From NCBI GenBank assembly GCA_022760335.1, contig JALEGE010000170.1, positions 18,164 to 82,163 of the forward strand: 64,000 nt of DNA. The letters run 5' to 3'. Positions 12,894 to 45,121 of the stretch are shown here, piece by piece (the first letter of the stretch is position 1; the number at the start of each line of letters is the position of its first letter). The notes beneath the pieces are model-generated. The model had not been told where the DNA came from, did no database searches, and saw only the letters and a program-made list of their open reading frames with translations. The stretch comes from Hyphomonadaceae bacterium. Lineage in GTDB: Bacteria > Pseudomonadota > Alphaproteobacteria > Caulobacterales > Hyphomonadaceae. A program made the position numbers and the translations under genes.

Positions 12894-13082
12894 GGTGCAT
12901 GGAGCACTCGCGATATGCACCGGTTACTCAAGCGAAACACGGAATGGTGCATATCGGCCTTGCGGCCTCCATGCACCCTACGCGCCTTCCCGGTTCCGCG
13001 AGAGCGTCCGCACGCGCCCTTCGAGATATTCGATCATTGGCGTGGCGATGTCCTTACCCGTGGCCGTCTCGATGCCCTCCAG
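12894..13082 (-). pseudogene. Duplicated fragment: last ~105 nt of rimK (12978-13082) plus ~85 nt of its downstream spacer
   Basis: Aligns by hand with 13722-13912 at roughly 9 of 10 positions, including an identical 83-nt core. It encodes ..[34 protein letters not shown] with no upstream ORF. Confidence 0.85.
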
Positions 13083-13138
13083 AATATAAGACTGTCACAG
13101 TACGCCCATACCCAGCGCGGCACCGTTCTGGCGTTAAA

Positions 13139-13615
13139 TCAATCACATTCTCTGGGGTACAAGAAGGCAGCTTCAACTCTTCTCGTGCGATTGTATTCGA
13201 CGCGCGCTAGAACATCATAGGCACCAGCGTTTGCGTTCTTAGAAAACTCGGTGGCGGCGCATTGACACCATTGAGCTGTGTGTTTGGCATCATCACTTTC
13301 CAAACACTCCGCATAATACCCCTCCAACCACTCCGAAAGCACATCATTGCTAACCTCAGGAATGGTGAAATTTTCGTCCGCAACAGAGGGTGTTGTCGCC
13401 GCAGACTGCGCGTTTACATCCTCTTCGTGAGCGGCATTTTGCTCATCAATGTCGGCTTGTCCTTCAGCTGTAGCTTCTTCAATCGCTCCGCCAGGTGCGA
13501 ACATTGCATCTGCAACTGCTTCAGCATCTTTCGCAGGCTCGGAGTTTTCCTGAGCAAATGCACCACCACTGAGAACCATCGCCCCAAACAGCGCGCAACA
13601 AAGAACTGACTTCAT
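13139..13615 (-). CDS. Exported acidic Cys-containing hypothetical protein (cassette between the rimK repeats)
   Basis: 158 aa. Signal peptide MKSVLCCALFGAMVLSGGAFAQ; GAGGGA SD; AT-richer than the flanks. Confidence 0.7.
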   Translation of the reverse strand: MKSVLCCALFGAMVLSGGAFAQENSEPAKDAEAVADAMFAPGGAIEEATAEGQADIDEQNAAHEEDVNAQSAATTPSVADENFTIPEVSNDVLSEWLEGYYAECLESDDAKHTAQWCQCAATEFSKNANAGAYDVLARVEYNRTRRVEAAFLYPRECD

Positions 13616-13721
13616 TTTGATAAATCCCTCGACAATTACCCTCGCGATAGCAGCTTTTAACGAGGTCTATAGAACTTGCTAGCCCTTTCTATCGGGCATT
13701 AAACTTCGCTACGCTCCGTCG

Positions 13722-13912
13722 GGTGCATGGAGCACTCGCGATATGCATCGGGCACTCAAACCAAGTACCGGAATGGTGCATATCGGCCTTGCGACATTCA
13801 TGCACCCTACGCGCCTTCCCGGTTCCGCGAGAGCGTCCGCACGCGCCCTTCGAGATATTCGATCATTGGCGTGGCGATGTCTTTGCCCGTGGCGGTCTCA
13901 ATCCCCTCAAGG
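13722..13912. repeat. Native partner of the 12894-13082 direct repeat (rimK downstream spacer + rimK 3' end)
   Basis: See the alignment note for 12894-13082. It contains the hairpin ggtgcat-N17-atgcacc just downstream of the rimK stop. Confidence 0.85.
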
Positions 13913-15189
13913 CCGGGGGAGGAGTTGACCTCCAGGACGCGGGGGCCCTTTTCGCTGCGCAGGATATCGACGCCCGCGACGGCCAGGCCAAGCTCGCGGG
14001 CGGCGCGGCGGGCGACGTCGCGTTCTTCCTTGCTGAGCCGGGCGGCCACCGCAGTGCCGCCGCGATGGAGGTTTGAGCGGAACTCGCCGGCCGCGGCCTG
14101 GCGCTTCATCGCGCCGACCACTTTCCCGCCGATCACGAAACAGCGCGTATCGGCGCCGGCCGCCTCGGCAATGAATTCCTGCACCAGGAAGTTCGCGTCC
14201 AGCCCCCGGAAAGCATCGACCAGGCTCTCGGCCGCCTTCTTCGTCTCGGCCAGCACGACGCCTCGACCTTGCGTGGATTCCAGGAGCTTCACCACCACCG
14301 GCACACTGCCGGCCAGCGTCACCAGGTCCTTGGTATCCTTCGGCGAATTGGCAAAGGCGGTCACCGGCATGCCGATCTTGGCCGCCGACAGGATCTGGTG
14401 GGCGAGCAGCTTGTCGCGCGAGGCGGAAATGGCGAAGGGCGAGTTCAGGCAATAGGCCCCGGTATTGGCGAACTGGCGCAAAACGGCAGTGCCATATGAG
14501 GTCACCGAGGCGCCGATGCGCGGGATCACGGCATCATAGCGCGGCAGCACCTTGCCATCATAATGCACCTCGCTGGCGCTGGATTCGATGCGCATATAGC
14601 AGCGCGAGGTGTTGATCATCTCGATCACATGCCCGCGTGCCTCAGCCGCCTCGGCGATACGGCGGCTGGAATAATTGTTCGGCTCGCGGGTGAGCAGGGC
14701 GATGCGCAGCGGGCGTTTCACCGGGCGCTTTTTCGGCATGCCCTTGTAGAGATCATAGGATTTGCGCGGCTGGGCGAAGGACTGGTTGGGGTCGACCACC
14801 ATATCATCCACAATCGCGGTGCGCCCCAGCAGCATGCGATAGGACATGGTCTCGCGATTGGTGAGCGTGACCTCCACCGGCCAGCGCCGCGCGCCCATCT
14901 CGATCTCGGCGGCGATGACATAGCGCAGCTCGGTCTCGCCATTGGAGCTCGTCACATTGCGCCGGTCGACCACGGGGGCCGAGCAGGTCACCTCCAGGCT
15001 GGAATCTTCCGGATTGGGCTGGATCAGGAATCGCACCTGGGGGGCATCGGCTGGCCCGAAAGGCTCGATGACGGAAGCATGCAACGCGGAGGTGCGCGCG
15101 CCAGTATCCACCTTGGCCTTGATCGCCGGCAGGCCAAGCCCCGGCAGGGCCAGCCATTCCTCCCAGCCGAGTTTGAACGTCTCGCTCAT
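13807..15189 (-). CDS. rimK: RimK-type ATP-grasp alpha-L-glutamate ligase fused to an N-terminal RimB-like (PF05618, retropepsin-like 'ATP-dependent zinc protease') domain
   Basis: Start at [38 protein letters not shown] (DUF785/PF05618-type). From about residue 160 the sequence is RimK ATP-grasp ([20 protein letters not shown]...[14 protein letters not shown]). Confidence 0.9.
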
Positions 15190-15280
15190 GGGGATGCTCC
15201 GCTGGGTGACTTCGTGCCCCGTCTCGCGCATGTCGCGGGGCGGCGCAAGCGGGGATGTTCAGTGGGGCGGGCTTATCGTG

Positions 15281-15610
15281 CTAAGGTTCGATCTCTACAT
15301 GGAGGCCGCCTGCTTCCAGTTCCCGCAATGCGGCAGGAAACTTTTGCTCGAACAGGGTGACCAGCCTGGCATTGGTGGCATTGCCAAGACGTACCCAGAG
15401 CAGTTGCGGCGGAGACGGCGGTGCAACGAGCAGGCGGAAATCGCGGTCTTTGGTTACGATCACGGCGCCGCGCTGCTTGGCGGCAGCAAAGATCGCCGTG
15501 TCAGTTGCGGTCAGCCCGAGCAGATCGTCGGAATAGTCGGCTTCATGGCCCTGTTCCATGAGCCAAGCCGCCAGACGCAGTGGCAGATTGGCATCAACCA
15601 GGAAGCGCAC
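15281..15610 (-). CDS. DUF5615 family PIN-like (Mut7-C-like) protein, putative toxin
   Basis: 109 aa. MRFLVDANLPLRLAAWL...IVTKDRDF. It begins 3 nt after the DUF433 gene. Confidence 0.8.
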   Translation of the reverse strand: MRFLVDANLPLRLAAWLMEQGHEADYSDDLLGLTATDTAIFAAAKQRGAVIVTKDRDFRLLVAPPSPPQLLWVRLGNATNARLVTLFEQKFPAALRELEAGGLHVEIEP

Positions 15611-15613
15611 TGC

Positions 15614-15856
15614 CTATTCTGCCGCGAAGGCGAGGCGGTTGTCTGCAGCCCTGGCCGCGTAGGCAAGGCAAGCTGTGATATCCTCGTCTTCAAGGTTTGG
15701 ATAGCTTTCGAGGACTTCGTCCCGGCTTGCTCCGGCGGCCAGCATGTCGAGCACATCGCTGACCCGAAGGCGCATGCCCCGCACGGTCGGCTTTCCGAAA
15801 CAGACCTCTGGATTGACGGTGATGCGCGGGAATATCTCGGTTTGCATGCGTTGCAT
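15614..15856 (-). CDS. DUF433 domain protein, putative antitoxin
   Basis: 80 aa. ITVNPEVCFGKPTVRGMRLRVSDVLDMLAAGASRDEVLESYPNLEDEDITACLAYA is typical of DUF433. Confidence 0.8.
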   Translation of the reverse strand: MQRMQTEIFPRITVNPEVCFGKPTVRGMRLRVSDVLDMLAAGASRDEVLESYPNLEDEDITACLAYAARAADNRLAFAAE

Positions 15857-15904
15857 TATGCAGCGTGTGAGATTTTTCTCATAGCATTTTTACTAGCACG
15901 CGTG

Positions 15905-15935
15905 GGGTGGGTATCGGTTTCGCCTCAACCCACCC
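15905..15935 (-). terminator. Hairpin downstream of rpoH (possible terminator, no T run)
   Basis: gggtgggt-N15-acccaccc: an 8-bp stem starting 9 nt after the rpoH stop. Confidence 0.3.
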
Positions 15936-15943
15936 TACAGAGA

Positions 15944-16849
15944 TCAAGCCGGCGCGCCGCCCGGCAGGCCTTCTTCTTTTGCCATGCGCTGCATTGCCTT
16001 TTGCAGTTTCTCGAAGGCGCGGACTTCGATCTGGCGGATGCGTTCGCGGCTGACATTGTAGACCTGGCTGAGCTCTTCGAGGGTTTTCGGCTCGTCGCTC
16101 AGGCGGCGTTCGGTGAGAATGTGTTTCTCGCGCTCATTCAGGTCTTCCATTGCCGCGGTGAGGAGTTCCATGCGGGCATCGAATTGCTGGCGGTCGGCGA
16201 ACTCGGCCGCGTGGCCCTGCTCCTCATCGGCCAGCCAGTCCTGCCACTCCATGTCGCCATCCTTGCCCATGGGCACGTTCAGCGAGGCATCGGATGCGCT
16301 CATCCGGCCATTCATGGAGATGACGTCCTTTTCCGAGACGTTCAGGCGCGTGGCGATCTCGGCCACCTGGTCGGGCTTCAGATCGCCTTCTTCCAGCGCG
16401 GCGATCTCGCCCTTGATCCGGCGCAGATTGAAGAAGAGCTTCTTCTGCGCCGCCGTGGTGCCGAGTTTCACGAGGCTCCAGGACCGCAGGATATATTCCT
16501 GGATCGCAGCGCGGATCCACCACATGGCATAGGTTGCCAGACGGAAGCCCTTGTCGGGGTCGAATTTCTTCACGGCCTGCATCAGGCCGACATTGCCCTC
16601 GGAGATGACCTCGGCCATGGGCAGGCCATAGCCACGGTATCCCATGGCGATCTTCGCCACGAGGCGCAGATGCGAGGTGACCATTTTTTCGGCCGCTTCG
16701 GGGTTTTCATCCTGTTGCCAGCTCTTGGCCAGCAGGAATTCCTCGCCCTTTTCGAGCATCGGGAATTTGCGGATTTCACTCAAGTAGCGGCTCAGGCCCT
16801 GTTCCGGGCTCAGCGCGACGGCGCGGCTGGATGTATTTCCTGCAGCCAT
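15944..16849 (-). CDS. rpoH: RNA polymerase sigma-32 (heat-shock sigma factor RpoH)
   Basis: 301 aa. Sigma-70 regions 2-4 and an RpoH-box-like AQKKLFFNLRRIKGEI. Confidence 0.95.
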   Translation of the reverse strand: MAAGNTSSRAVALSPEQGLSRYLSEIRKFPMLEKGEEFLLAKSWQQDENPEAAEKMVTSHLRLVAKIAMGYRGYGLPMAEVISEGNVGLMQAVKKFDPDKGFRLATYAMWWIRAAIQEYILRSWSLVKLGTTAAQKKLFFNLRRIKGEIAALEEGDLKPDQVAEIATRLNVSEKDVISMNGRMSASDASLNVPMGKDGDMEWQDWLADEEQGHAAEFADRQQFDARMELLTAAMEDLNEREKHILTERRLSDEPKTLEELSQVYNVSRERIRQIEVRAFEKLQKAMQRMAKEEGLPGGAPA

Positions 16850-16989
16850 GACAAACTCCTCCGTGTCTTCCCCGCAACGACCTGCAGGCGCAGCATCGGC
16901 GTGGCGGCTTTTCCGGGATGATGTCTAGCCCCGTCCCACGGCGGCTCCCATCCCCATTCCGCGCATAAGTCCTATCACGCGGAACGAGG

Positions 16990-17017
16990 ATATAGGCACA
17001 TCACTGCGTCGAAAAAG
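16990..17017 (-). promoter_or_regulatory. Candidate sigma-32-type promoter upstream of rpoH
   Basis: The minus strand reads CTTT-N17-CCTATAT, about 140 nt upstream of the rpoH ATG. The -10 matches the alphaproteobacterial CYTATNT pattern; the -35 matches only 3 of 4 positions of CTTG. Confidence 0.25.
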
Positions 17018-17039
17018 GGGCATAGGGCCTGAAACTTGA

Positions 17040-18026: not shown

Positions 18027-18166
18027 GGGGACGTCCTTTTGATCTTGCCGCACATCTAGACTGGTCAGTACGCTTCGCCAAGCCAATAGCCCAGCCCCCC
18101 TTGCGCGCAGCTTGTCGCGTGGCTTAGGTGTGCGCCAATCTAGCCACTAGCTTGGGGAAGTTGCGT

Positions 18167-19159: not shown

Positions 19160-19190
19160 TCCGGCGGTATCTGATTTGCCCCAAACTCAG

Positions 19191-19220
19191 CCTCATGGTG
19201 AGCGGAGACGAACCATGGGG
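19191..19220. repeat. REP-like hairpin (loop GAGCGGAGACGA)
   Basis: cctcatggt-gagcggagacga-accatgggg, 32 nt after the galE stop. Confidence 0.8.
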
Positions 19221-19253
19221 CGAGAAATTGGAGAAAAGCTCTCTAATTGCACG

Positions 19254-19285
19254 CCCTCGTCCTTCGTCTCCGCTCAGGATGAGGG
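19254..19285. repeat. REP-like hairpin, inverted relative to 19191 (loop TCGTCTCCGCTC)
   Basis: ccctcgtcct-tcgtctccgctc-aggatgaggg. The loop is the same and the stem differs, which implies compensatory stem changes. Confidence 0.8.
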
Positions 19286-19393
19286 CTGCAGTGGATTGTA
19301 TTGGCTTGGGCTGATTTCTCAGCTTGGGGCTTCGACATTCCGTAATCATGGCGCTAAGAGCGACCATTCTTTCCCCGTTCAAGCGAGAAATCC

Positions 19394-20518
19394 ATGACGG
19401 CGCCCCGTAACATTATCGCCTATTCCGACAAGCTGTTCACCCCGTCAGAAAGCTTCATCCCGCGCGGCTACACCGCGTTTTCGCGCCTGAAGCCGGTCTA
19501 TTTCGGGCATGACCTGAAAGGCCCGGTCCCCGAAGGCGCGGAAGCCGTGGTGATGGGCCCGCTGCACGGGCCGGGCGGGGAGGCGGCCTTCAAACAGCTC
19601 GGCACGATCTCGGCGGCGCTGGAAGCCAAGATCGAAGAGCTTCAGCCCGTCGCGATCCATGCAAGTTTCGGCAAGTCCGGCGCCTATGCGCTCCCCATTG
19701 CGCGCAAACTCGGCCTGCCGCTGGCCGTCACCTATTATGGCGGGGACGCGACCAAGACGACCAATACCAAGGACAGCTTCATCCGCGTCTATAATCGCCG
19801 CCGCGCCGCGCTCTGGGCCGAGGCCGACCTGATCCTGCCCTGTTCGGACTTCATCCGCCGGGAGCTCCTCGCCAAGGGCGCGCCGGAGGACAAGATGATT
19901 GTCCATCACAACACCGCCGACCCGAACCGCTTCCAGCCGGGTGAGAAGGAAAAGATCATCCTCTTCGCCGGCCGCTGGACTGAGAAAAAAGGCATCGACA
20001 CGCTGATCGGCGCGCTGGCGAAACTCGGGCCCCAGTTGGACGGCTGGCGCGTGCGCCTGCTCGGCGATGGCGAATTGAAAACGGGGCTGGTGGCGGATCT
20101 GGAAGCGGCGGGCGTCACGGCGGAACTGCCCGGCTGGATTCCCGCCGACGAGATGCCGAAACACTTCGCCGAAGCGATGATCGCCTGCGTGCCGTCAAAG
20201 CGCGCAGCCTCTGGCGATGCCGAGGGCCTGCCGCTGGTCTGCGTCGAAGCCATGCTGTGCGAATGCGCGCTGGCCGCGACCCACCATGCCGGCATCCCGG
20301 AATGCGTGAAGGATGGCGAGACCGGCTATCTGGTGGATGAAGGCGATGTCGAGGCGCTGGCGGACAGGCTCGGTCGCATGATCGCCGATGTCGAGGCCAC
20401 GCGCGCCATGGGCAAGGCGGGGCGGGCTTTTGCGCTCTCGGACTTCAATCTCGTGAACCAGTCAAAACGGCTGGAGGAGCATTTGCTGCGGATCGCGGGG
20501 GAGCGGGGGGCGTTGTAG
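19394..20518 (+). CDS. Glycosyltransferase family 4 (GT-B, RfaG-like)
   Basis: 374 aa. The C-terminal GT1/GT4 motif EGLPLVCVEAMLCECALAATHHAGIPECVKDGETGYLV contains the E-x7-E region. Confidence 0.9.
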   Translation: MTAPRNIIAYSDKLFTPSESFIPRGYTAFSRLKPVYFGHDLKGPVPEGAEAVVMGPLHGPGGEAAFKQLGTISAALEAKIEELQPVAIHASFGKSGAYALPIARKLGLPLAVTYYGGDATKTTNTKDSFIRVYNRRRAALWAEADLILPCSDFIRRELLAKGAPEDKMIVHHNTADPNRFQPGEKEKIILFAGRWTEKKGIDTLIGALAKLGPQLDGWRVRLLGDGELKTGLVADLEAAGVTAELPGWIPADEMPKHFAEAMIACVPSKRAASGDAEGLPLVCVEAMLCECALAATHHAGIPECVKDGETGYLVDEGDVEALADRLGRMIADVEATRAMGKAGRAFALSDFNLVNQSKRLEEHLLRIAGERGAL

Positions 20519-20535
20519 ATTAACTTGATGAGTTT

Positions 20536-21066
20536 CTAGAAGATTATCCTGAATTGGGCGGCGGCATAATCATCGCCACCTCGAACATACAGCCCAAAGT
20601 ATTTGCCAAACTCGACCCCGGCGCTCGCAAATGGCATCGCCTCGTCTCCGACAAGCACACCGCCGCCAAGACCGAAGTTCTGATTAAGAAGGACAAGTGC
20701 TTCGGCGCCAGCACGGTAGTCGGCTGCGGGGGCGCATTCGCTGTCATCCGCAAATTGTCCATTTCGACTATCCCGACAGCGCGATTGCCCGTTAGAAAAC
20801 GTATCATTGTAGAAGGGGCTATCCTCGTCTTCGTAAAACACGACGTTGACAGGAATGAGATTCAGTCTCGCCCAATCCTTATACTGAATGCTTACGGCCG
20901 CTTCCAACTCGCCGCCTTCTTGTCCTTCGAACGCATACCCACCTGACAGATGGCCTCCCCAGCTCCAATCCTTCTGGGCTTTCAGAGCTGGCTTTTCCTG
21001 AGCTGTTGCGGTGCCGGCGCTGATTGCAACCAATCCAGCAGCGACCAAGATCTGATGATTATTCAT
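20536..21066 (-). CDS. Small outer-membrane beta-barrel-like protein (cassette A)
   Basis: Start at MNNHQILVAAGLVAISAGTATAQ (signal peptide). Alternating hydrophobic pattern and C-terminal ...AAQFRIIF ending in Phe. AT-richer than the flanks. Confidence 0.65.
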   Translation of the reverse strand: MNNHQILVAAGLVAISAGTATAQEKPALKAQKDWSWGGHLSGGYAFEGQEGGELEAAVSIQYKDWARLNLIPVNVVFYEDEDSPFYNDTFSNGQSRCRDSRNGQFADDSECAPAADYRAGAEALVLLNQNFGLGGGVLVGDEAMPFASAGVEFGKYFGLYVRGGDDYAAAQFRIIF

Positions 21067-21196
21067 ATGGGACCCCCAACCAAATACAGTTTTGGTGTGA
21101 AGATTCCCGCCTAAAAGCAACCTTTGGTTGATGCTTTTTCTGGTGATGGAGCTTTGCTCAGTCCATCTTTAGGCATAGCCCCTCCCTACGCCCTTT

Positions 21197-21300
21197 GGCG
21201 GCAGCGGTAAGTGGTACGCCTGTCAAGGAACGGCCACTGATCTATCCGAGCCCGAGGGGCAAGCCACTCATCCAGGCCCGCGTGCGAGAGATCGCCAGCC
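21197..21300 (+). pseudogene. Internal fragment of trmD (corresponds to 23780-23884)
   Basis: ggcggcagcggtaagtggtacgcc...cgcgtgcgagagatcgccagc aligns with the intact trmD at about 9 of 10 positions. It has no start or stop of its own. Confidence 0.8.
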
Positions 21301-21310
21301 GGGCGCAGTG

Positions 21311-21391
21311 TCAGACTTCAATCTGGTGAACCAGTCGAAACGGCTGGAAGATCATCTGATCCGCATCGCGACGGAAAAGGGCACGCTTTAG
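21311..21391 (+). pseudogene. Diverged fragment of the glycosyltransferase 3' end (copy 2 of 3)
   Basis: Encodes SDFNLVNQSKRLEDHLIRIATEKGTL*, against SDFNLVNQSKRLEEHLLRIAGERGAL* in the intact gene. About 4 of 5 nucleotides are identical, and many differences are synonymous or conservative. Confidence 0.8.
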
Positions 21392-22062
21392 CGGCCCTGG
21401 AAAAATGTGTTCACCGTCAGGCGGCCTTCGCGGGGATCGGCTGACAGGGAAAGATCTTCGGGGATCACGCCGGAATGCAGGCGGTAGCCGCGATAGATCG
21501 CCATGCGGTTGAACTTGGCCTTCACACGCCCGGTTTCTTCAAACAAGGATGTGTCGCCATCGACATAACCTGTCGGTGTGTTCTGAGCGTTTTCAGTGCG
21601 CAGAGCCGTGTCATATGGCCGATGACGTGTCTCGCTGATGGTCTCAAAGCCCGTCGAGCGGTGGCGATAAAATGCCGTGCCGCCGCCGGTCTCGTCGCAG
21701 AGATAGTGCAAAAGTGCGAGAATTTTCGGGCTGGTGGAGTCAAAATGCGGGATGCGCTGGATCGGCGCGAGGGCGTCGCGCGGCGTGGTGACCAGCGAAA
21801 AGGCGCATTCTGAGAGATGTGCGCCATTTTCAAGCCCGAACACGCCGGGCAGCACGTCTGCGAACAGCTCCATATGCTCTGACAGATAGCCAGGGTCGGC
21901 CTGGGCGCGGATGCCGGGATAATACGGCCCAATGGGTTGATATGACTTCGCGCAGGCCGCTTCGAACAGCGCGCCGGGATCGGAGGCGAAGTCATCAATG
22001 ATGACGACCGGTTCCCCCTCATTGCCAAAGTGGCGGATGTCATAGCGTTCGGGCATAGCCAC
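21388..22062 (-). CDS. Cupin / 2OG-Fe(II)-oxygenase-like hypothetical protein (resembles the DUF6445 family) (cassette B)
   Basis: 224 aa. Possible HxD...H metal triad (RIPHFD ... YRGYRLHSG). The family name is from memory and unverified. Confidence 0.6.
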   Translation of the reverse strand: MAMPERYDIRHFGNEGEPVVIIDDFASDPGALFEAACAKSYQPIGPYYPGIRAQADPGYLSEHMELFADVLPGVFGLENGAHLSECAFSLVTTPRDALAPIQRIPHFDSTSPKILALLHYLCDETGGGTAFYRHRSTGFETISETRHRPYDTALRTENAQNTPTGYVDGDTSLFEETGRVKAKFNRMAIYRGYRLHSGVIPEDLSLSADPREGRLTVNTFFQGR

Positions 22063-22145: not shown

Positions 22146-22320
22146 CCGGAATGCGCGAAGGATGGCGAGACTGGCTATCTCGTCGATGAAGGCGATGTCG
22201 AGGCGACGCGCGCCATGGGCGAGGCGGGCCTTTGCGCTGTCGGACTTTAATCTCGTGAACGAGTCAAAACGGCTGGAGGAGCATTTGTTACGGATCGCGG
22301 GGGAGCGAGGGACGCTGTAG
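22146..22320 (+). pseudogene. Fragment of the glycosyltransferase 3' end (copy 3 of 3), with deletion and frameshift
   Basis: Matches 20297-20518 at about 9 of 10 positions. It lacks about 42 nt lying between two gatgtcgaggc direct repeats and has a further small indel. It ends in the same ...EEHLLRIAGERGTL*. Confidence 0.85.
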
Positions 22321-22484
22321 ATAGTCCCCTTCGTTTTAGCATCGCATACGCCTGTGTTATCCGGCTGAATTAGTCTCAGAAATCCGACCAGAACGCTCCG
22401 TAAACAAAACCTAAATTCACACCTTGAAATTCTTAACCGCCGTCCCCAGACTCCGATGGTCGTGAATTTTCGCGGCAAATGAGT

Positions 22485-22518
22485 GAGCCGGGCAAGTGCT
22501 CCAACACGTACCCGGCTC
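22485..22518 (+). terminator. Stem-loop followed by TTGTTT (terminator-like, or part of an sRNA/leader)
   Basis: gagccggg-N18-cccggctc followed by ttgtttcc, within the 330-nt non-coding stretch upstream of the HTH gene. Confidence 0.35.
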
Positions 22519-22606
22519 TTGTTTCCAAACTAGCGGTCTGGAGAAATCTTGTATGGTGCATATGGTGATAGCACCCGTGGGGTGTCAACTGAAATGTTTC
22601 ATATCC

Positions 22607-22619
22607 CGTCACTGTGACG
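22607..22619. promoter_or_regulatory. Perfect 13-bp palindrome CGTCAC-T-GTGACG, candidate operator
   Basis: It lies about 30 nt upstream of the ATG of the small HTH gene at 22650. Confidence 0.35.
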
Positions 22620-22649
22620 CATCCCGACCGCAATTGCGAGAGGTGATAA

Positions 22650-22859
22650 ATGTCACACGCACATCCGGGACGACCGTCCCATAAACTCACTTACGAAGAA
22701 GCAATCGAAGTCTGGCTTTTGCGCTGGGATGGCTGGTTTCAAAACCGGATTGCAGCCAAGTTTGATGTGAACCCAGGTCGCATCAGCGAGGTATTGCATC
22801 ATCATCGGCATCCTGGCTCATACGACGACGCGCTCAAGCGTCGGGGAGCGGCAGCCTGA
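22650..22859 (+). CDS. Small helix-turn-helix DNA-binding protein
   Basis: 69 aa. KLTYEEAIEVWLLRWDGWFQNRIAAKFDVNPGRISEVL has the pattern of short phage/island HTH proteins. GAGAGGTG SD. The stop overlaps the next start (TGATG). Confidence 0.7.
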   Translation: MSHAHPGRPSHKLTYEEAIEVWLLRWDGWFQNRIAAKFDVNPGRISEVLHHHRHPGSYDDALKRRGAAA

Positions 22860-23188
22860 TGACAGCAGCCTACTCTCTTGGCTCTAGCCAAACCTACTTG
22901 GAACTGCGCGATGCAGTGCTTACTCGCCAACCTTTGCGTGTCCTTTACAAAGGGCATTATAGGGATGTGTGCCCGCACACTCTTGGCCTGAAAAACGGCA
23001 AGGAAAAAGTCCTCACTTTTCAATTTGGGGGCGGCTCAAGCAGCGGTCTCCCAGCTGGTGGTGAGTGGCGATGCATGTTCGTGAGCGACGTTGAGGCAAT
23101 CGAGGTTATCGATGCGGACTGGCATACTGACCCTCAGCATTCACAGCCTCAAACCTGCGTTGACGCAGTTGATGTTGAGACCGGATGA
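22859..23188 (+). CDS. WYL-like (Sm-fold-like) small protein, hypothetical
   Basis: 109 aa. YKGHYRDVCPHTLGLKNGKEKVLTFQFGGGSSSGLPAGGEWRCMFVSDVEAIEV follows the R-x-V-x-P...beta-hairpin...W-R-x-F pattern of WYL domains. The assignment is by eye only. Translationally coupled to the HTH gene. Confidence 0.6.
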   Translation: MTAAYSLGSSQTYLELRDAVLTRQPLRVLYKGHYRDVCPHTLGLKNGKEKVLTFQFGGGSSSGLPAGGEWRCMFVSDVEAIEVIDADWHTDPQHSQPQTCVDAVDVETG

Positions 23189-23330
23189 TCTCGGCATAAT
23201 CACGGGCGCGTAGTTCAGCGTCTGCATCTATGAAGATTGCGCGGCGAACGCCGCCGTCTTCAGTCTGCGCCTCGACGATCCACTCCTCTGGATTGTCGGG
23301 GTTGCGGACAACCTCAGCATCTTGAAGCAT
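23106..23330 (-). CDS. Small acidic hypothetical protein
   Basis: 74 aa from MLQDAEVVRNPDNPEEWIVEAQTEDGG. Strong GGAGGGG SD 4 nt upstream of the ATG. Its 3' end overlaps the convergent 22859..23188 gene by 83 nt. Confidence 0.5.
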   Translation of the reverse strand: MLQDAEVVRNPDNPEEWIVEAQTEDGGVRRAIFIDADAELRARDYAEIIRSQHQLRQRRFEAVNAEGQYASPHR

Positions 23331-23573
23331 ATGATCCCCTCCGGGCAATCAAAGTGACTCAATCTAAAGCCAAGGGCAATTTACTAGCTTGAGCTAAAAC
23401 GCCACGGGCACCGAATTGTTCCCGCTTCACAGGAGCCAGTATTCCCGTCTGGTGGACCGGTCGGATTTGTAACCGCCTATACCACATTGCGGCGTCGGTC
23501 GTTCATCTCGGCCAATTGCCAAGGGCATGCACCTACAGCTTGGCAGTGCGGCATTGAACAGACATAAGCCCCC

Positions 23574-24299
23574 ATGCCCTTCGCCGTCTCCGTTCTCACC
23601 CTTTTTCCCGACGCCTTTCCCGGCGTTCTCGGTGTCTCGATCCTGGAGCGGGCGCGCAGAGCTGGAATTTGGTCACTTGAGACACTGGACATTCGGGATT
23701 TTTCACATCATAAGCACCGATCCGTTGACGACACGCCCTTTGGGGGTGGCGCCGGTATGGTGCTTCGTCCTGATGTGGCGGCGGCAGCGGTAAGTGGTAC
23801 GCCCCGTGGGGAACGGCCACTGATCTATCCGAGCCCGAGGGGCAAGCCGCTCACCCAGGCCCGCGTGCGAGAGATCGCCAGCGGACCGGGGGTGATTTTG
23901 TTTTGCGGCCGCTTTGAGGGGTTGGACCAGCGGGCCATCGAGGCCTGCGGCATGGAAGAGGTCTCGCTGGGCGACTTTGTGCTCGCCGGCGGCGAGGTGG
24001 CGGCACAGGCGCTGATTGAAGCGTGCGTGCGCCTACTTCCAGGGGTCGCAGGTAATGAGGCTTCGCTGGAGGAGGAGAGTTTCGAGACGGGCCTGCTCGA
24101 ATATCCTCACTATACGCGGCCACGCGTATGGGAGGGTCGGGAGGTCCCGGAGGTGCTGACGTCAGGCGACCATGGAAAGGTTGCCGAGTGGCGGCGCGCC
24201 GAGAGTGAAAAGATCACGCGTGAGAGGCGGCCTGACCTCCTTGAGCGCACAGACATTAAAGAGCCCAAGCGTCCGGAGACTGGCGATGAACGTGATTGA
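23574..24299 (+). CDS. trmD: tRNA (guanine37-N1)-methyltransferase
   Basis: 241 aa. [20 protein letters not shown] and [17 protein letters not shown] motifs. Confidence 0.95.
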
Positions 24300-32196: not shown

Positions 32197-33093
32197 CTAT
32201 CCGCGCGGATGGGCGGCGGCGACAATGCCGGCCAGGCTCGCCTCATCCACCCCGGTATAGACCTGCGTGGTCGACAGGCTTGCATGGCCGAGCAGGACCT
32301 GGATCGCGCGCAGGTCTGCCCCGCCGGCCAGAAGATGCGTGGCGAACGCATGTCGCAAGGCATGGGGGGTGGCGGTGTCGGGAAGGCCGAGCGCGCCGCG
32401 CAGATGCTGAACCAGGCCTTGTACCTGTCGCGGGTTCAGCGCCCCGCCGCGCACGCCGCGAAACAACGGGGCAGAAGGCGACAAGGCAAATGGTGCGAGC
32501 GAGGCGTAGGCGTCGATGGCCGCGCGCACCTGCGGGATCAAGGGTACGATACGCACCTTGCCGCCTTTGCCGTGAATGCGCAGACGGTCTGGCGCCGGCA
32601 AAACGGCGCCGGTCAGACCAAGCGCTTCGGAGATCCGCAGGCCCGCGCCGTAAAGCATGCACAGGATGGCCATGTCGCGTGCGCCGATCCAGGCTTCGCT
32701 GGCATGATCCTCGGCCAGGGAGATCATCTCCTTTGCGGCGACCTGGGAGACAGGGCGCGGCAAGCGGCGACCGCGCTTCGGTCCTTCCAGATAGGCGATC
32801 TCGGCATTCTCGATGCCGTGAACACGCTCCAGCCAGCGATACAGCGCCTTTATCGCGGACAGGGCGCGGGCAATCGAGGCGTCCGAGAGGCCATCACGGC
32901 GGCGCCGCGCAAGATAGGCGCGGATATCGCGTGCACCGAGCCCCGCCAGGACGCGCGGGCCGATTTCAGTTTCCAGATAGCCATTGAGAAAGCCGAAAAA
33001 ACTGGCCAAGTCTGACGTGTAGGCCTCAAGCGTATTTTCCGCGAGGCCGCGCTCATCGCGGATATGGCCGAGAAAGGCGTTGAGAAGCTCCAT
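32197..33093 (-). CDS. xerC: Tyrosine site-specific recombinase of the XerC/XerD family (XerC-like; the subtype is tentative)
   Basis: 298 aa. N-terminal SAM-like domain (GLAENTLEAYTSDL, ARRRRDGLSDASIARALSAIKALYRWL). C-terminal HALRHAFATHLL..LLGHASLSTTQVYT containing the catalytic Tyr. Confidence 0.85.
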   Translation of the reverse strand: MELLNAFLGHIRDERGLAENTLEAYTSDLASFFGFLNGYLETEIGPRVLAGLGARDIRAYLARRRRDGLSDASIARALSAIKALYRWLERVHGIENAEIAYLEGPKRGRRLPRPVSQVAAKEMISLAEDHASEAWIGARDMAILCMLYGAGLRISEALGLTGAVLPAPDRLRIHGKGGKVRIVPLIPQVRAAIDAYASLAPFALSPSAPLFRGVRGGALNPRQVQGLVQHLRGALGLPDTATPHALRHAFATHLLAGGADLRAIQVLLGHASLSTTQVYTGVDEASLAGIVAAAHPRG

Positions 33094-37064: not shown

Positions 37065-37160
37065 TTTCCACCCTTTTTTTTGCAAACACCGTGCGAGAGT
37101 TCAGCTGTAATCTGTATAAAGCAAGTGTGATCGTCACGTCAGCTAAGATCGCTCCGGCGC

Positions 37161-39989: not shown

Positions 39990-40074
39990 GGCGCCGGTCC
40001 TGCGAGTTTTCTTTGCTTTCAGTTAATAAAATACACGTAGTTCTTGTGGGGAGAAATTACGGGGTCCAACCGCA

Positions 40075-40440
40075 ATGAAACACTGCCTGATCGTTGATGA
40101 CAGCCGCGTCGTACGCAAGGTCGCTGGCCGGATTGTCGCCAATATGCAGTTCGAGATTTCCGAGGCCGCCGATGGCGCCGAGGCGCTGGAAGCCTGCCGG
40201 AAATCCATGCCTGATGTCATTCTCCTGGACTGGAACATGCCTGTGATGAACGGGCTGGATTTCCTGCGCGCGCTGCGCCGGGAGACAGGCGGAAAAGATC
40301 CGAAAGTCGTATTCTGCTCCACCGAAACCGATCGGGACCATATTACCGAAGCCCTGCGTTCCGGGGCGGATGAGTTCGTGATGAAACCATTCGATACAGA
40401 CATCCTCGAATCCAAATTCGCCGAAGTCGGCCTCGTTTGA
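40075..40440 (+). CDS. Single-domain CheY-like response regulator
   Basis: 121 aa. Acidic pocket DD, phospho-acceptor D in ILLDWNMP, conserved K in MKPF. Confidence 0.9.
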   Translation: MKHCLIVDDSRVVRKVAGRIVANMQFEISEAADGAEALEACRKSMPDVILLDWNMPVMNGLDFLRALRRETGGKDPKVVFCSTETDRDHITEALRSGADEFVMKPFDTDILESKFAEVGLV

Positions 40441-40510
40441 CGCTTTATTAAGACCAGTTGCAGCAGGGTTAAGGTCAACTCAGCGCTGCTTCGACGTCAG
40501 GGGATCCTTT

Positions 40511-41356
40511 ATGCAGGAAGCAACCTTCAATGCCCTTGCGGACCTGGCTCTGTCCAAGACTGGACAGTCCATTTCCCCCTCCAAGGCGTATCTGATTGAA
40601 GCGCGGCTTTCCAATATCTTGCGCCGGGAGGGCTTTGCATCCTGCGATGATCTGGTCGCCTGCCTGGACGCGCGCCCCAATCCGAATTTCGAGATGGAAA
40701 TCGCCGCGGCGCTGCAAACGCGCCAGACCTGGTTTTTCCGCGATCGCGATACGCTGGAGCGTCTGGTCAGCGATGTGCTTCCGCAAAAGTTGAAACAGTC
40801 CAAGGCTGGTCGGCTGAAGATCCTGTGTGTGGGCGTGTCCACCGGTCAGGAAGCCTATTCTCTGGCCATCCTGCTTAATGAGCATGCCCAGGCCCTCTCC
40901 GGGGCGCGCATTGACGTGACAGCAACCGATATTTGCAAACAGTCTCTGACCACGGCGCGCGCGGGCACATACGGCCATTTCGAGATCCAGCGTGGCCTTT
41001 CAGTGCACCGTCTGATGCGCCATTTCGACCAGCTGGAAACCGGCCAGTGGCAGGCCAGCGAGGATCTGCGCCTGGCCATCGGTTTCCGTCAGCACAATCT
41101 GCTTGATGCTGATGCACCACTCGGCCAGTTCGATCTCATTCTCTGCCGACACGTGCTTTCGAGCATGAGCAAATCCATGCGTGCCAAGGCGGCCGATCTC
41201 TTGACGCAAAAATTGACGCCCGGGGGCTTGTTGTTTCTCGGCCATGGCGAGACGCTGAGCGGTTCCAGCCCGGCCTTTGAACCTTCGCGCAGTCATCGGG
41301 GTGGCTGGGAAGTCGTGCCTGAAGCGCGCCGTGCAGAGACCCGCACGGCTGTCTGA
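40511..41356 (+). CDS. cheR: CheR-type protein-glutamate O-methyltransferase
   Basis: 281 aa. CheR N-domain plus the SAM domain LKILCVGVSTGQEAYSLAILL and FDLILCRHVL. Confidence 0.88.
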   Translation: MQEATFNALADLALSKTGQSISPSKAYLIEARLSNILRREGFASCDDLVACLDARPNPNFEMEIAAALQTRQTWFFRDRDTLERLVSDVLPQKLKQSKAGRLKILCVGVSTGQEAYSLAILLNEHAQALSGARIDVTATDICKQSLTTARAGTYGHFEIQRGLSVHRLMRHFDQLETGQWQASEDLRLAIGFRQHNLLDADAPLGQFDLILCRHVLSSMSKSMRAKAADLLTQKLTPGGLLFLGHGETLSGSSPAFEPSRSHRGGWEVVPEARRAETRTAV

Positions 41357-41461
41357 ACCAGCGGCTGACAGCGCCCCGTGCTTTGAATTCTGGTCCATCT
41401 CGCCTAAATAGCGCCCTCAGACAGAGCTGCGCCGGGCCTTGACCCCGGCTGGAGACGAGAC

Positions 41462-42649
41462 ATGAGCATCGCGAACACCGCCGCCTCAGGGGCTGGTGGA
41501 CTGAATTCATTGGGCTTTGCCAAACCCCCTGCGGAAACCCGCGTTGTGGCCGCCATGTCTGGTGGGGTCGACAGTTCCGTGGTCGCCGCCCTGCTCGCCG
41601 ATCAGGGTTATGATGTGGTGGGCATCACGTTGCAGCTTTATGATCATGGTGAAGCGGTGCGCCGGAAAGGGGCCTGCTGCGCCGGGCAGGACATCCATGA
41701 TGCACGCAATGTGGCCGATCAGATCGGCATTCCGCATTATGTGCTGGATTATGAGAGCCGGTTTCGCGACCAGGTGATGGAAGACTTCGCCGACACCTAT
41801 CTGGCCGGTTCGACGCCAATTCCCTGCATTCGCTGCAATCAAACCGTAAAATTCGCGGACTTGCTGGCCACGGCCAGGGATCTCGGCGCCGATTGCCTCG
41901 CCACGGGCCATTATATCCGACGCGTGGAAGGCGCGAATGGGCCGGAGCTGCACCGCGCCCATGATGACAGCCGCGACCAGTCCTATTTCCTGTTCGCCAC
42001 CACAGCGGAGCAGCTGGGCTATCTGCGCTTCCCGCTCGGCGGTCTGCCGAAGACTGAAGTGCGGGCGCTGGCGGAGAAGTATAATCTGCCGGTGGCGACC
42101 AAGCCCGACAGCCAGGATATCTGTTTCGTGCCGGACGGCAATTATGCCGAAGTGGTGAAACGCCTGCGGCCCGGCGCGGGGCGTGGCGGCGAGATTGTGC
42201 ACATGGATGGCCGCGTGCTGGGCACCCATAATGGCGTGATCCACTATACAGTGGGCCAGCGGCGCGGCCTCGGCATCGCCACGGGCGAGCCGCTCTATGT
42301 CGTGAAGATCGATGCGCCAAAGCGGCAAGTGGTTGTCGGACCGCAGGAGGCGCTGGCGACTGTGGGCCTGACCTTGAGCGAGCTCAATTGGCTCGGTGGT
42401 GGGACGTTTGAGGTGGCCTGCAAGGCGGAACGCCCCGTTCTGGCTCGCGTGCGCTCGACCCGCGCGCCCGTGCCGGCGCGGCTGGGGTATCGCGATGGGC
42501 AGCCGGCAGTGTTCTTCGACGCGCCGGAACATGGCGTTGCGCGCGGCCAGGCTTGCGCACTCTATGATCCGGACGGGGAGACCCGCGTGCTTGGCGGCGG
42601 CTTCATCGCCAGTACGTTCGGGGTGGTGGACACGCCTGCGGCGGCTTAA
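41462..42649 (+). CDS. mnmA: tRNA 2-thiouridine(34) synthase
   Basis: PP-loop [14 protein letters not shown] and catalytic Cys motifs ([14 protein letters not shown]). Confidence 0.96.
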
Positions 42650-42692
42650 TCGCCCCCCCCTACTTATTAGCTTGGGGCCTCTATCTCCGTAA

Positions 42693-42712
42693 ATGCCTGC
42701 GAAAGCAGGCAT
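42693..42712. repeat. Short palindromic unit ATGCCTGC-GAAA-GCAGGCAT
   Basis: It shares the core CCTGCGAARGCAGG with the units at 1857, 10484 and 42764. Confidence 0.6.
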
Positions 42713-42760
42713 CCAGGGACGAAAGACGCAACCAAGTGCTCCCGGTTGAGAGATAGGTCA

Positions 42761-42790
42761 ATGGATACCTGCCTTCGCAGGTATCTGCGG
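42761..42790. repeat. REP-like unit ATGGATACCTGCCTTCGCAGGTATCTGCGG
   Basis: Its reverse complement CCGCAGATACCTGCGAAGGCAGGTATCCAT matches the sequence at the left ends of both IS relics (1852-1881, 10479-10508), except at the two compensatory stem positions. Confidence 0.75.
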
Positions 42791-42818
42791 ACATTAGCAG
42801 GCCTCCTCTGGTCGAAAA

Positions 42819-42928
42819 CTACCCGTCCACCGGCCCCGTCACCTCGTCGATCGGGATGGAATAGTGCCGGTTGCAGAACTAACAGTTGATCGAGAGCGTG
42901 CCATCGGGCTCGACCATGTCGCGCAGGC
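42819..42928 (-). pseudogene. Duplicated fragment of the hslO 3' end (last ~36 codons) with a premature stop
   Basis: Aligns with 44165-44274 with about 8 mismatches in 110 nt. ctggca becomes ctaaca, turning the CQFC zinc-motif codon into a stop. The repeat begins exactly at the stop codon. Confidence 0.85.
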
Positions 42929-43089
42929 GATCTGAAGCGAAATCCGTTCCGCATCGGTGAGCAGTGCGAATTGAATTCAATCTAAGGGTTAATTGAAAAT
43001 TGAACTGATTCAGGGTGGTGATATCGGGGGAGACATAAAACCGTCACTTGGTTGAGGTGCTAACCCTTGTTAAGGCCAAATCGATTTTC

Positions 43090-44073
43090 ATGTCAGAGGG
43101 GATGATCGTGAGAACTGTAATAAATACTGCAGTGGTTTCGGGTCTGGCGGTTTTGGTTGCTGGGTGCACCGTGTCTCCAGAACTGATGGAAACACTGAAT
43201 ACACCTCCGATGGCGCGCGGCGCACTTTTGGAGAGCGAAGAGATCCGCTCTTTCACTTTCCCGAAGCAGGATTACGACGGTAAACCGGTCACGCGTAGTG
43301 ACATCCAAGCTGCAATCGAGCGCTCATTCATCAATGAAAGCAAGTTCGATCCCTTGCAAAGGGGTCGCCCCGTTGGGTGTGCCGGATCACGGATTCCAAC
43401 CCTCACACGTGGTGTCATGTTTGGCTTTGATGATGCCGATCAGCGTCAGTTCAACAGAGATATGCCGAGTATATTCGAAGCGCGGTACCAGAACTATACG
43501 CGCTATGGGACCGCAAATGTGGTCCAAGGTTCCTCGATCAATATCGAATTTGCGGTCGATTATGGTGAAACAGACGATCAGTATACTGCCTCTTTCAGAT
43601 TGTGGCGGCCAGCCAGCGAGAAGAATTCGACAAGCTTTGATCCCTCATGTGGCAGGATAAACCCGCTTGGAACTGTTGAAGAGATTCAGGCCGATGCAGT
43701 TGGTGCCATCACAAAGATGAACCCGGCCATTGTCCGCCGCAAACTGATTTCCGGTGAACTGGACGTTCCGTTCCCGTCTGAATCCGTCGCTGCATCCTTT
43801 ACGCGGTTCTGGGATGAATTGCCTGCCCGGGAAGTTGTGGCCAGCTTTGGAAGCGAAGCAGGCAAACTACCTGCTGACGGTGCCACATATTCCGTGGAGT
43901 TGAACAAGATTACACATCCTGTTCACATCACAGTGTACCCTTATCGTGATGGCTCAAAGGTCGTTTACAACGCAAACTACGGCTACGAGATGACCGGCAG
44001 TGGTGACATGACCTATAGTGAAGATGGCATCGCCGCGATCGAAGAGGCCATTAGAGACGTGGCTTTCGATTAA
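43090..44073 (+). CDS. Hypothetical lipoprotein (cassette between the hslO repeats)
   Basis: TVINTAVVSGLAVLVAGC lipobox near the N-terminus. AT-richer than the flanks. No family recognised. The start is uncertain: ATG at 43090 or 43102, or GTG at 43108; the track uses a TTG at 43048. Confidence 0.7.
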   Translation: MSEGMIVRTVINTAVVSGLAVLVAGCTVSPELMETLNTPPMARGALLESEEIRSFTFPKQDYDGKPVTRSDIQAAIERSFINESKFDPLQRGRPVGCAGSRIPTLTRGVMFGFDDADQRQFNRDMPSIFEARYQNYTRYGTANVVQGSSINIEFAVDYGETDDQYTASFRLWRPASEKNSTSFDPSCGRINPLGTVEEIQADAVGAITKMNPAIVRRKLISGELDVPFPSESVAASFTRFWDELPAREVVASFGSEAGKLPADGATYSVELNKITHPVHITVYPYRDGSKVVYNANYGYEMTGSGDMTYSEDGIAAIEEAIRDVAFD

Positions 44074-44164
44074 GTAGAAGATTCTCAATCCAGAATGGCA
44101 CCTTCTCTAACAAGGAGGTGCGAAGACGACATTTTAGGGTTGCATAAGCAAGGAAGGCCAGCCC

Positions 44165-45121
44165 TTACCCGTCCACAGGCCCCGTCACTTCATCGATCGG
44201 GATGGAATAGTGCCGGTTGCAGAACTGGCAGTTGATCGAGAGGGTGCCATCGGGCTCCACCATGTCGCGCAGGCCGGCATCCGAGAGGCCCTGCAGTGTC
44301 GCGCGCAGGCGGTCTTCATTGCAGCTGCAGGCATCCTTCAGGGCCATGGGCTCGGCCATGCGCACGCCGGTCTCGTGGAACAGGCGGTAGAGCAGGCGGT
44401 CGGGCGCGAGATCTGGCGAGATCAGCTCGGCATCGGTGATGGTCCCGAACAGGGCCTTGGCCGTCTCCCAGGCCTCTTCGGTGTCGCCGCGCGCATCATC
44501 GCCGGCCATCTGCTGCAACAGGAGGCCGCCGCCGCGCCAGCCACCGCCTTCACCACCCGGTACGGTGAGTTCACCCACTCCCAGGGAGATGCGCGAAGCG
44601 ACCTGCTCTGATTGCGCGAAATAGTCTTCCGCACATTCGGCCAGGGTGCCTTTGGCGAGGGGCACGATACCACGATAGGGGTGCATGCTCGGGTCGTCAT
44701 GCACGATGATCAGGCCGAGCGCGCCGTTTGAGCCAAAGAGCTGGGGCATGTGTGGGCGCGCGCCCTTGTTCACGCGCATCAGCTTGTCCCATTTCTCCTC
44801 ATCCTTGCGAATATAGCCGCGCAGATCGCCCTCAACGGTATATTCGGCAACCAATAGCGACACCGGACCATTGCCTTCGGCCTGGACCAGCACCTTGCCC
44901 TCGAACTTCATGCCTGAGCCGACCAGGGCGGCGAGCATCAGCGCCTCGCCGAGCAGGCGGGCCAGCTCAGGATGATAGTCATGGCGCGTCAGGATCGGGT
45001 CGAGCGTTTCCGCGCCGAGGCGCGTGATGCGCCCGCGCACAGGCTCGCCATCAATCTGGAAAGCGGCCACCATGTCCTCGGTGGGGCCGGGGATTGCCCC
45101 TAGAGTTTGTTGAGACACCAT
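44165..45121 (-). CDS. hslO: Hsp33 family redox-regulated chaperone
   Basis: 318 aa. C-terminal zinc centre CSCN...CQFCN. An alternative start at 45073 would remove the 22-nt overlap with argF. Confidence 0.93.

Follow-up and report, generated by a model that had tools for sequence, protein, structure and literature searches.

The 64-kb stretch of contig JALEGE010000170.1 analyzed here (the window) comes from a metagenome-assembled genome (MAG) of a marine Hyphomonadaceae bacterium, and contains four loci at which direct repeats enclose cassettes of additional genes. At three of these loci, the 3′ end of a conserved gene (rimK, a GT4 glycosyltransferase gene, and hslO) is present again in truncated form, 0.8-1.8 kb from the intact gene end, with the cassettes in between; at the fourth (D1), intergenic DNA is repeated on both sides of an 8.4-kb block. 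We regard these repeats as probable scars left when DNA of related genomes was added by homology-anchored integration, at spots of cassette turnover between core genes.

The repeats were identified by one repeat search and two self-comparisons of the window; in the sensitive self-comparison, the rimK, GT4, and hslO sets together with D1 were the only direct repeats found (110-290 nt over the four loci, all >30 bp). An earlier note, made from the letters of the window without database searches, had described the three gene-associated sets. They lie where it placed them, to within a few bases, and proper alignment leaves no doubt that the similarities are significant (BLAST E-values of 1e-17 to 1e-72). 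Background loci from other genomes, amounting to ~1.24 Mb, yielded about three loosely comparable repeat pairs, among them a tRNA duplication and an intergenic repeat. No pair was found in another 369 kb, close relatives included, and ~100 kb from the closest relatives contains no repeats of this kind. In the background set, the sole comparable repeats are found in a Rhodobacteraceae genome, where two copies of a tRNA-like 3′ segment flank a histidine-phosphatase gene (L027:4531-4606 and 5355-5429), and in a SAR86 contig, where an intergenic repeat flanks a methyltransferase gene directly after rimK (L038:2268-2327 and 3269-3327).

The species-representative genomes closest to the window share only 75-78% DNA identity with it. 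Nearer relatives were reached via the GT4 and hslO proteins (L091, L098, L099, and L100, with L102 and L081 for hslO). Among these, L091 is a 964-kb TARA scaffold of a sister species with 85-90% DNA identity to, and full synteny with, the window, and the GT4 protein of L098 has 97% amino-acid identity to that of the window.

The rimK and hslO loci

The intact rimK gene (13807-15231, minus strand) is followed by a structured spacer of ~110 nt, and the live 3′ end plus this spacer (13696-13912, minus strand) recur as a dead copy (12868-13082, minus strand) that comprises the last ~105 nt of the coding sequence and ~110 nt of downstream spacer, the 5′ part of the gene being absent. The two copies are 88.6% identical over 211 nt, with an 86-nt identical core, and every coding difference within the homologous stretch is synonymous. 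Between them lies cassette 1 (13083-13695, minus strand), which contains ORF158 (13139-13615, minus strand; GC ~0.53), encoding a secreted protein with just 3 relatives among 1.84 billion representative proteins. The AT-richer DNA between the dead rimK fragment and coaBC contains ORF128 (12349-12735, minus strand), for a small secreted protein without a counterpart in the relatives, its signal peptide having been read from the sequence.

The spacer beyond the rimK stop (13696-13806 and 12868-12976, minus strand) is found in both copies, and not in L091 or L001; it is predicted to form a stable long hairpin (z = -2.8 and -4.3), with no Rfam match. On the other side of the gene, the rimK-rpoH spacer of the window (15281-15856) encodes a DUF5615/PIN-like protein and a small partner ORF without flanking repeats, and the same spacer in L091 (5088-6484) holds two unrelated ORFs, which marks it as a further variable spot.

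At the second locus, the intact hslO gene (44165-45121, minus strand; MCI4645783.1) has a live 3′ end at 44165-44274 (minus strand), and its last 110 nt recur as a dead copy at 42819-42928 (minus strand), with the homology beginning exactly at the stop codon. The copies are 93.6% identical, and the differences consist of six synonymous third-position changes, one CAG>TAG nonsense codon, and TAA versus TAG as stop codon, such that 7/8 are silent. Cassette 3 (42929-44164, plus strand) is 1236 nt in length with a GC of 0.505, and contains the lipoprotein gene lipo341 (43048-44073, plus strand; MRY64_13465), convergent with hslO. Only three further protein clusters related to lipo341 exist among 5.8 billion. 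The predicted structure of the protein (pLDDT 63) has no significant match in the PDB, and the model gives no sign of a nuclease or recombinase fold, nor anything to suggest a DNA enzyme. A 19-nt inverted repeat (44095-44113 and 44232-44250, 84% complementary) links the cassette tail of lipo341 with the hslO 3′ coding region; this is probably due to chance, being one of 13 pairs at the same threshold.

The GT4-trmD locus

The GT4-trmD locus has three cassettes separated by fragments of the GT4 gene. The intact GT4 glycosyltransferase gene (19394-20518, plus strand) has a live 3′ end at 20297-20520 (plus strand), which serves as the reference copy of the repeat. Immediately beyond it, cassette 2a (20521-21196, minus strand) contains ORF194 (20536-21120, minus strand), which encodes a secreted protein, has a GC of ~0.54, and is convergent with GT4. 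The cassette is followed by an internal fragment of trmD (21197-21299, plus strand), 103 nt long, truncated at both ends and corresponding to 23780-23882 of the intact gene at 92% identity; it had escaped the earlier note. The right end of this fragment is fused, at a joint between 21299 and 21300, to GT4 fragment 2 (~21300-21391, plus strand), which retains the last ~26 codons up to the stop, in frame, and is a diverged allele with 77-85% identity to the live copy. Cassette 2b (21388-22062, minus strand) encodes a DUF6445 protein, and is convergent with, and overlaps the stop of, GT4 fragment 2.

GT4 fragment 3 (22146-22322, plus strand) is 88-93% identical to the live copy (93% over 60 nt, 88% over 135 nt), and has both a 42-nt in-frame deletion between two 11-nt GATGTCGAGGC repeats and a 5-nt frameshift. 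Beyond it, cassette 2c (22323-23573) is an AT-richer islet of small ORFs, directly upstream of the intact trmD gene (23574-24299), with ORFs for a helix-turn-helix-like protein of 69 aa (22650-22859) and for proteins of 109 and 80 aa. In the genome GT4 lies upstream of trmD, and the chimera reads in the opposite order, with the trmD interior first and then the GT4 end. The trmD′|GT4′ fusion therefore has the topology expected at the junction of a tandem duplication, or where a circle closes, over the segment from the GT4 end to trmD, and is an illegitimate joint.

A fourth locus with an intergenic target

The D1 locus, which had escaped the earlier note, has a left copy of an intergenic target at 1783-2076 (copy A; core 1841-2076) and a right copy at 10410-10703 (copy B; core 10468-10703), with a period of 8,627 bp. 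The 236-nt cores are 97-98% identical, and a leftward extension of ~55 nt has just ~65-70% identity. The inserted 8.4-kb block (2077-10409) encodes a YfbK-like von Willebrand factor A (vWA) domain protein, a DUF885 protein, SapC, a DsbD-like protein, a redoxin, and ORF169; it has normal GC, and no mobility gene was found in it using Pfam. In L091, L100, and L001, Fpg, a small ORF, and coaBC are adjacent, without the 8.4-kb block, and L091:635-730 represents the single-copy site, collinear with copy A and homologous to the left part of both copies. The proposed tie of the pattern to gene 3′ ends does not hold, because D1 duplicates intergenic DNA around its block: what is duplicated is whatever the target was, and not gene 3′ ends as such. 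An interpretation of D1 as the remnant of an IS481 transposase gene was dropped, there being no Pfam support.

A 20-nt palindrome family, A[CT][AG]CCTGC-4 nt-GCAGG[TC][GA]T, has four matches in the window versus 0.01 expected: 1858-1877 and 10485-10504, inside the D1 repeats, and 42693-42712 and 42765-42784, in the spacer adjoining the dead hslO fragment. Short pieces related to these palindromes occur upstream of GT4 (19187-19287) and in L091.

Allelic divergence of live and dead copies

When live and dead copies were compared codon by codon, the pooled differences were 37 synonymous and 19 non-synonymous (pS 0.27, pN 0.046, pN/pS 0.17). This synonymous excess departs from neutrality (binomial p = 1e-10), and also from an identical-at-birth model of the two copies, with the dead copy drifting and the live copy accepting silent changes only (p = 8e-5). 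When the final 80 nt of GT4 are compared, any two of the live copy, fragment 3, and the L098 and L091 orthologues share 82-92% identity; fragment 2 has 76-84% identity to all of these, being closest to L098. The dead copies have few lesions (one nonsense codon, one frameshift, and one slipped deletion, with one or two disabling lesions each), and these lesions are recent.

Since the differences between live and dead copies are mostly synonymous, the sequences indicate that the copies diverged as working alleles in different genomes, and not in place. Furthermore, because the divergence is at the level of orthologues of sister species and yet disabling lesions are few, the dead copies were functional gene ends until recently. 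This agrees with the earlier note, which had remarked that many differences are synonymous and had taken the copies for alleles from relatives as opposed to fresh duplications. The homology stops abruptly at the 5′ edge of every dead copy. The rimK and D1 copies are mosaics, with an identical core and diverged arms; in hslO and GT4, the differences are spread along the repeat.

Cargo of the cassettes and absence of mobility genes

The cargo consists of secreted proteins, a lipoprotein, the DUF6445 protein, small ORFs, and the vWA/DUF885/SapC/DsbD block, and includes no restriction-modification gene. ORF128, ORF158, and ORF194 encode signal peptides, and lipo341 a lipobox, and their DNA has 50-54% GC versus ~61% for the window. 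The cassettes had all been described as AT-richer, which applies to those of ORF158 (~0.53), ORF194 (~0.54), and lipo341 (0.505), but not to the DUF6445 gene, the composition of which is near normal (GC ~0.59).

Searches of the cassette ORFs and their neighbors with Pfam, PHROGs, and PADLOC identified no recombinase, transposase, nuclease, or restriction-modification gene. Neither terminal inverted repeats nor conserved cassette ends were found. The repeats are unique within the window, and there is no core common to repeat units from different loci, in which shared strings reach 10 nt at most. Thus, the reported lack of an integrase, a transposase, and inverted repeats is borne out for the cassettes. 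The window contains a single tyrosine recombinase gene (32197-33093), which is Xer-like; L091 also has a tyrosine-recombinase gene at the corresponding position. MutL is intact. Viral contigs contained no relatives of lipo341, ORF194, or ORF158, and there was no plasmid match for lipo341. In metagenome contigs, relatives of the DUF6445 protein have ≤48% identity and are mostly from soil, with 0 beside GT4 and 0 with flanking repeats.

Several known kinds of cassette arrangement do not fit these loci. Rfam and tRNA scans gave no matches, and so the loci are not tRNA-linked islets. For an integron, attC-like terminal inverted repeats and IntI are lacking, and the gene orientations are mixed. For a diversity-generating retroelement, there is no reverse transcriptase, the substitution spectrum is mixed, and the targets are housekeeping genes. 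In orphan toxin-immunity arrays, of the Rhs, contact-dependent inhibition (CDI), and type VI secretion system (T6SS) kinds, the anchor gene would have a variable 3′ end; here the anchors are rimK, GT4, and hslO, with conserved 3′ ends. The pattern is not an integron, a diversity-generating retroelement, a tRNA-linked island, or a polymorphic-toxin array.

The same sites in related genomes

The backbone coaBC - rimK - rpoH - GST - epimerase - GT4 - trmD - rplS - miaB is conserved in L091. The sequences repeated in the window are single-copy in L001, L091, L098-L102, and L081, and no flanking repeats occur in the relatives' versions of these spots. Different genes occupy the spacers of the conserved backbone in different genomes. 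The coaBC-rimK spot, with ORF128 and ORF158 in the window, holds a 168-aa ORF and a PepSY protein gene in L091 and nothing in L001. The GT4-trmD spot, with ORF194, the DUF6445 gene, and small ORFs in the window, holds a gene for a TIR-domain protein in L091 and six other contigs, a 114-aa ORF in L099, a 93-aa ORF in L100, and another gene in L098. After hslO, the window has the lipo341 cassette and then mnmA, L102 has a 221-aa ORF, YjdM, and purL, and L082 an AMP-binding gene. Clean empty sites are limited to rimK-coaBC (L001) and Fpg-coaBC (L091, L100, and L001); at GT4-trmD and the end of hslO, the relatives carry other DNA.

Because the spacers of a conserved backbone hold different genes, these spots are cassette hot spots or synteny breakpoints across the whole clade. 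The cassette polymorphism among relatives for which the earlier note had proposed to look is thus present, with a different cassette per relative at the same spots. Ordinary replacement, by a double crossover within the core genes on either side, would be scarless; the window would represent the imprecise, additive outcome. The TIR-domain protein at GT4-trmD in the sister species (L091:11171-11977, and L092-L097) is possibly the product of a defense gene. Many of the relatives' short-read contigs (L081:3366-3427; several GT4 contigs of 2-3 kb) end within ~100 nt past hslO or GT4, which fits gene ends that border variable, assembly-breaking DNA.

An independent case comes from an unrelated genome represented by four separate assemblies, from separate sequencing runs (L085-L088), which encodes a lipo341 homologue of 41% identity. 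The insert in L085 is 1237 nt in length, with a GC of 0.52 versus 0.64 for the genome, and is flanked by a 58-nt direct repeat of 95% identity that duplicates the 3′ end of an adjacent ATP-grasp gene in convergent orientation, with the stop codon as its starting point (L085:4694-6046, also in L086-L088); the dead copy lies 11 nt past the stop of a YhdP-like gene. This case shows that the architecture did not arise as an artefact of a single assembly, and that it recurs with AT-rich foreign cargo in high-GC, alphaproteobacteria-like genomes. No repeat was found around members of the same gene family in two other lineages (L083/84 and L089), and the four lipo341-family loci have coding similarity in common, with no conserved ends. 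The near-equality of insert length (1236 nt in the window, 1237 nt in L085) was judged a coincidence, since the lengths of gene and spacers differ.

Probable mechanism of integration

Homology-anchored insertion, one of the two possibilities raised in the earlier note, fits these observations best. DNA from a relative would have comprised a conserved gene end (or, at D1, an intergenic stretch) together with the donor's adjoining DNA, and would have paired with the resident copy via this single homologous stretch, the other end, which had no partner, being joined illegitimately. Two routes may be envisaged. In one, the fragment circularizes and enters by one Campbell-type crossover; in the other, the free tail of a linear fragment is ligated back into the resident copy, as in homology-facilitated illegitimate recombination (HFIR), with resolution upstream of the anchor instead of downstream. 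In E. coli conjugation, DNA with one homology was integrated mostly as a circular molecule, by single crossover and after loss of part of the homology, leaving duplications of 109-950 bp of the homologous locus, with true HFIR rarer (PMC3240628). For this reason, we favor a Campbell-type single crossover, or an HFIR-like event resolved upstream of the anchor, as the likeliest mechanism.

By either route, the product would be the gene, the donor-linked cassette, a truncated second copy, and the resident downstream DNA, in this order. The event would be tolerated because the intact gene is preserved, with the truncated copy decaying afterwards. Repeated events at GT4-trmD would have stacked three cassettes separated by GT4 stubs. 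The order of events is our reading of the arrangement; either copy may be the incoming one, the intermediate may have been circular or linear, the vehicle may have been transformation, a gene transfer agent, or another, and the integration may have depended on RecA. The simplest explanation for a repeat boundary at the stop codon is selection for the whole gene, since only events that keep the gene whole survive, and targeting is not required. The topology of the trmD′|GT4′ fusion would fit the closure joint of a circular intermediate, with no equivalent joint recognizable at the other loci.

Several points weigh against this account. The trmD fragment (pN/pS 0.64) and likewise the L085 pair are without synonymous bias; 3/8 of the hslO sites, a set too small to point to the incoming copy, favor the dead copy as ancestral; and sliding comparisons of identity with L098, L091, L102, and L081 revealed no breakpoint. 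Canonical HFIR should delete, and not duplicate, recipient DNA (PMC3240628), and hence a circular intermediate or an unusual resolution is needed. ORF128, ORF158, ORF194, the DUF6445 gene, and lipo341 were found in none of the relatives' loci, and the DNA inside the junctions was unmatched in the fetched loci; we infer the donor arrangement of gene plus cassette, no donor genome having been found. The nearest relatives being scar-free over ~100 kb, four scars in 64 kb need a lineage-specific reason, and the evidence does not support the genome-wide route suggested in the earlier note. Finally, the junctions are those of the assembled MAG sequence.

The trmD′|GT4′ joint is also the exact product expected from duplication in place of the segment from the GT4 end to trmD. 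Tandem duplication by illegitimate exchange between sister chromosomes, with the live copy and spacers later overwritten from relatives and so acquiring their allelic look, would in addition account for the near-identical cores (86 nt in rimK, and 236 nt at 97-98% in D1), and transformation is known to trigger tandem duplications (PMC3784515). We nevertheless consider it unlikely: the synonymous bias goes beyond the prediction of the identical-at-birth model, the two halves of each supposed duplication contain unrelated cassettes, the lesions in the dead copies are too few for 6-23% divergence, and several additional replacement steps would be required at each of the four loci.

The other possibility in the earlier note was that the cassettes are decayed site-specific islets, that is, remnants of integrative elements with an attachment (att) site overlapping a gene 3′ end and an integrase that was lost or acts in trans. 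Such elements produce the same architecture of intact gene, element, and displaced 3′ stub; the 86-nt identical core between diverged arms in rimK and the start of the hslO and L085 duplications exactly at the stop codon would also be consistent with them. However, no integrase was found in or beside the inserts, and the Xer-like recombinase of the window has its counterpart at the matching position in L091. With no common core beyond a string of 10 nt, four targets would need four specificities in 64 kb, and one target is intergenic. The inserts are only 0.6-1.2 kb, with one unrelated gene each, the repeats are much longer and more divergent than usual att cores, and site-specific recombination does not yield a joint like the trmD′|GT4′ chimera. 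Islets of this kind are therefore very unlikely.

Least probable of all is an assembly artefact that strung alleles from co-occurring strains one after another: the source is a MAG, strain mixing could mimic tandem alleles of relatives, the junctions are seen in one assembly of the species, and the pattern is absent from the relatives' assemblies, but the nonsense codon, frameshift, and deletion in the dead copies are unlike working strain alleles, the trmD fragment is cut short on both sides, unrelated sequences meet at the junctions with no repeat at the joints, such that a graph assembler would presumably have had no path across, and the same architecture stands in four independent assemblies of another organism (L085-L088).

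Comparison with known systems

Additive, homology-anchored integration as proposed here has counterparts among described processes. Insertion with long target duplication is reportedly the subject of Nobusato et al. 2000, Gene 259:99. The described cases have repeats of 30-420 bp with 93-99% left-right identity and no mobility genes; they concern restriction-modification genes, in Helicobacter and then in several phyla, and most hosts are naturally competent (Furuta, Abe & Kobayashi 2010, PMC2853133). These cases were found via a search for restriction-modification genes, and DNA breakage by the enzymes was proposed as the driver (PMC2853133). The loci reported here are alike in that a gene unit free of transposase and integrase lies between long direct repeats (here 58-290 nt, 77-98%), a related genome has the repeated sequence just once at the corresponding site, and the insert often has a deviant GC; some of the published targets overlap a gene 3′ end too. 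They differ in that the cargo is never restriction-modification, and in the presence of four loci in 64 kb, with serial stacking and clear synonymous allelic divergence. The loci thus match insertion with long target duplication in structure and depart from it in cargo. Because there is no such gene in the cargo, we argue that the process is independent of restriction-modification enzymes.

The experimental single-crossover integrants in E. coli share with all four loci a direct duplication around the insert, and the copies here may be hybrids of donor and recipient, as in the mosaics at rimK and D1. Unlike the experiment, in which the incoming DNA was a plasmid, circular chromosomal DNA from a relative has to be assumed, and nothing other than the trmD′|GT4′ chimera hints at a closure joint. 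The earlier note did not recognize a named system in this route of cassette acquisition; it matches both insertion with long target duplication (PMC2853133) and single-crossover duplications (PMC3240628). The route of gene gain is one already known and rarely documented, and no new kind of system.

In T6SS effector-immunity arrays of Vibrio cholerae, sequential displacement by HFIR has been proposed, with Rhs and CDI orphan 3′ ends cited (PMC5361080). As in such arrays, the loci described here combine a single conserved anchor with an illegitimate end, the new module lies beside the intact gene, and older 3′ stubs and the genes downstream of them are pushed back into the array, as at GT4-trmD. 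In orphan-module arrays, however, the toxin 3′ ends are variable, whereas here the 3′ ends are those of conserved housekeeping genes and the neighboring gene varies; and, unlike in HFIR, recipient DNA is duplicated and not deleted.

Integrative elements that replace the 3′ end of a gene, such as phage 21 and e14 at icd and the cis-mobilizable elements (CIMEs) at fda, also exist as integrase-less remnants. They resemble our loci in having an intact gene with an element-borne 3′ end, cargo, and a displaced native 3′ stub in direct orientation with mostly silent differences. They differ in that our loci have no integrase and no common core, tiny inserts, and differing targets, one of which is intergenic.

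Implications for gene gain in the lineage

There is a slim chance that this lineage has frequent recombinase-free cassette capture, in which linear fragments from sister species (e.g., delivered by a gene transfer agent) are added beside core genes via one homology. The D1 period of 8,627 bp is close to the gene transfer agent payload of ~8.3 kb measured in Caulobacter (PMC9632790). One sign of such capture would be the recurrence, in L085, of the cargo family with a scar of the same kind at another gene. If this were true, repeat-flanked cassettes could loop out, amplify, and move on, as an integron-like flexible gene pool without an integrase.

Recombinase-free gene addition between core genes is mostly inferred from laboratory transformation, and natural scars that retain both donor and recipient alleles are scarce. 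The four scars in 64 kb, including a three-step stack, are direct records, open to dating, of one-sided additive recombination in an uncultured marine bacterium, and indicate that the long-target-duplication class does not require restriction-modification cargo. The flanking repeats should permit RecA-mediated loss or amplification of the cassettes; the scars thus predict unstable cassettes, lost or amplified via their repeats, and would be useful for models of flexible-genome turnover.

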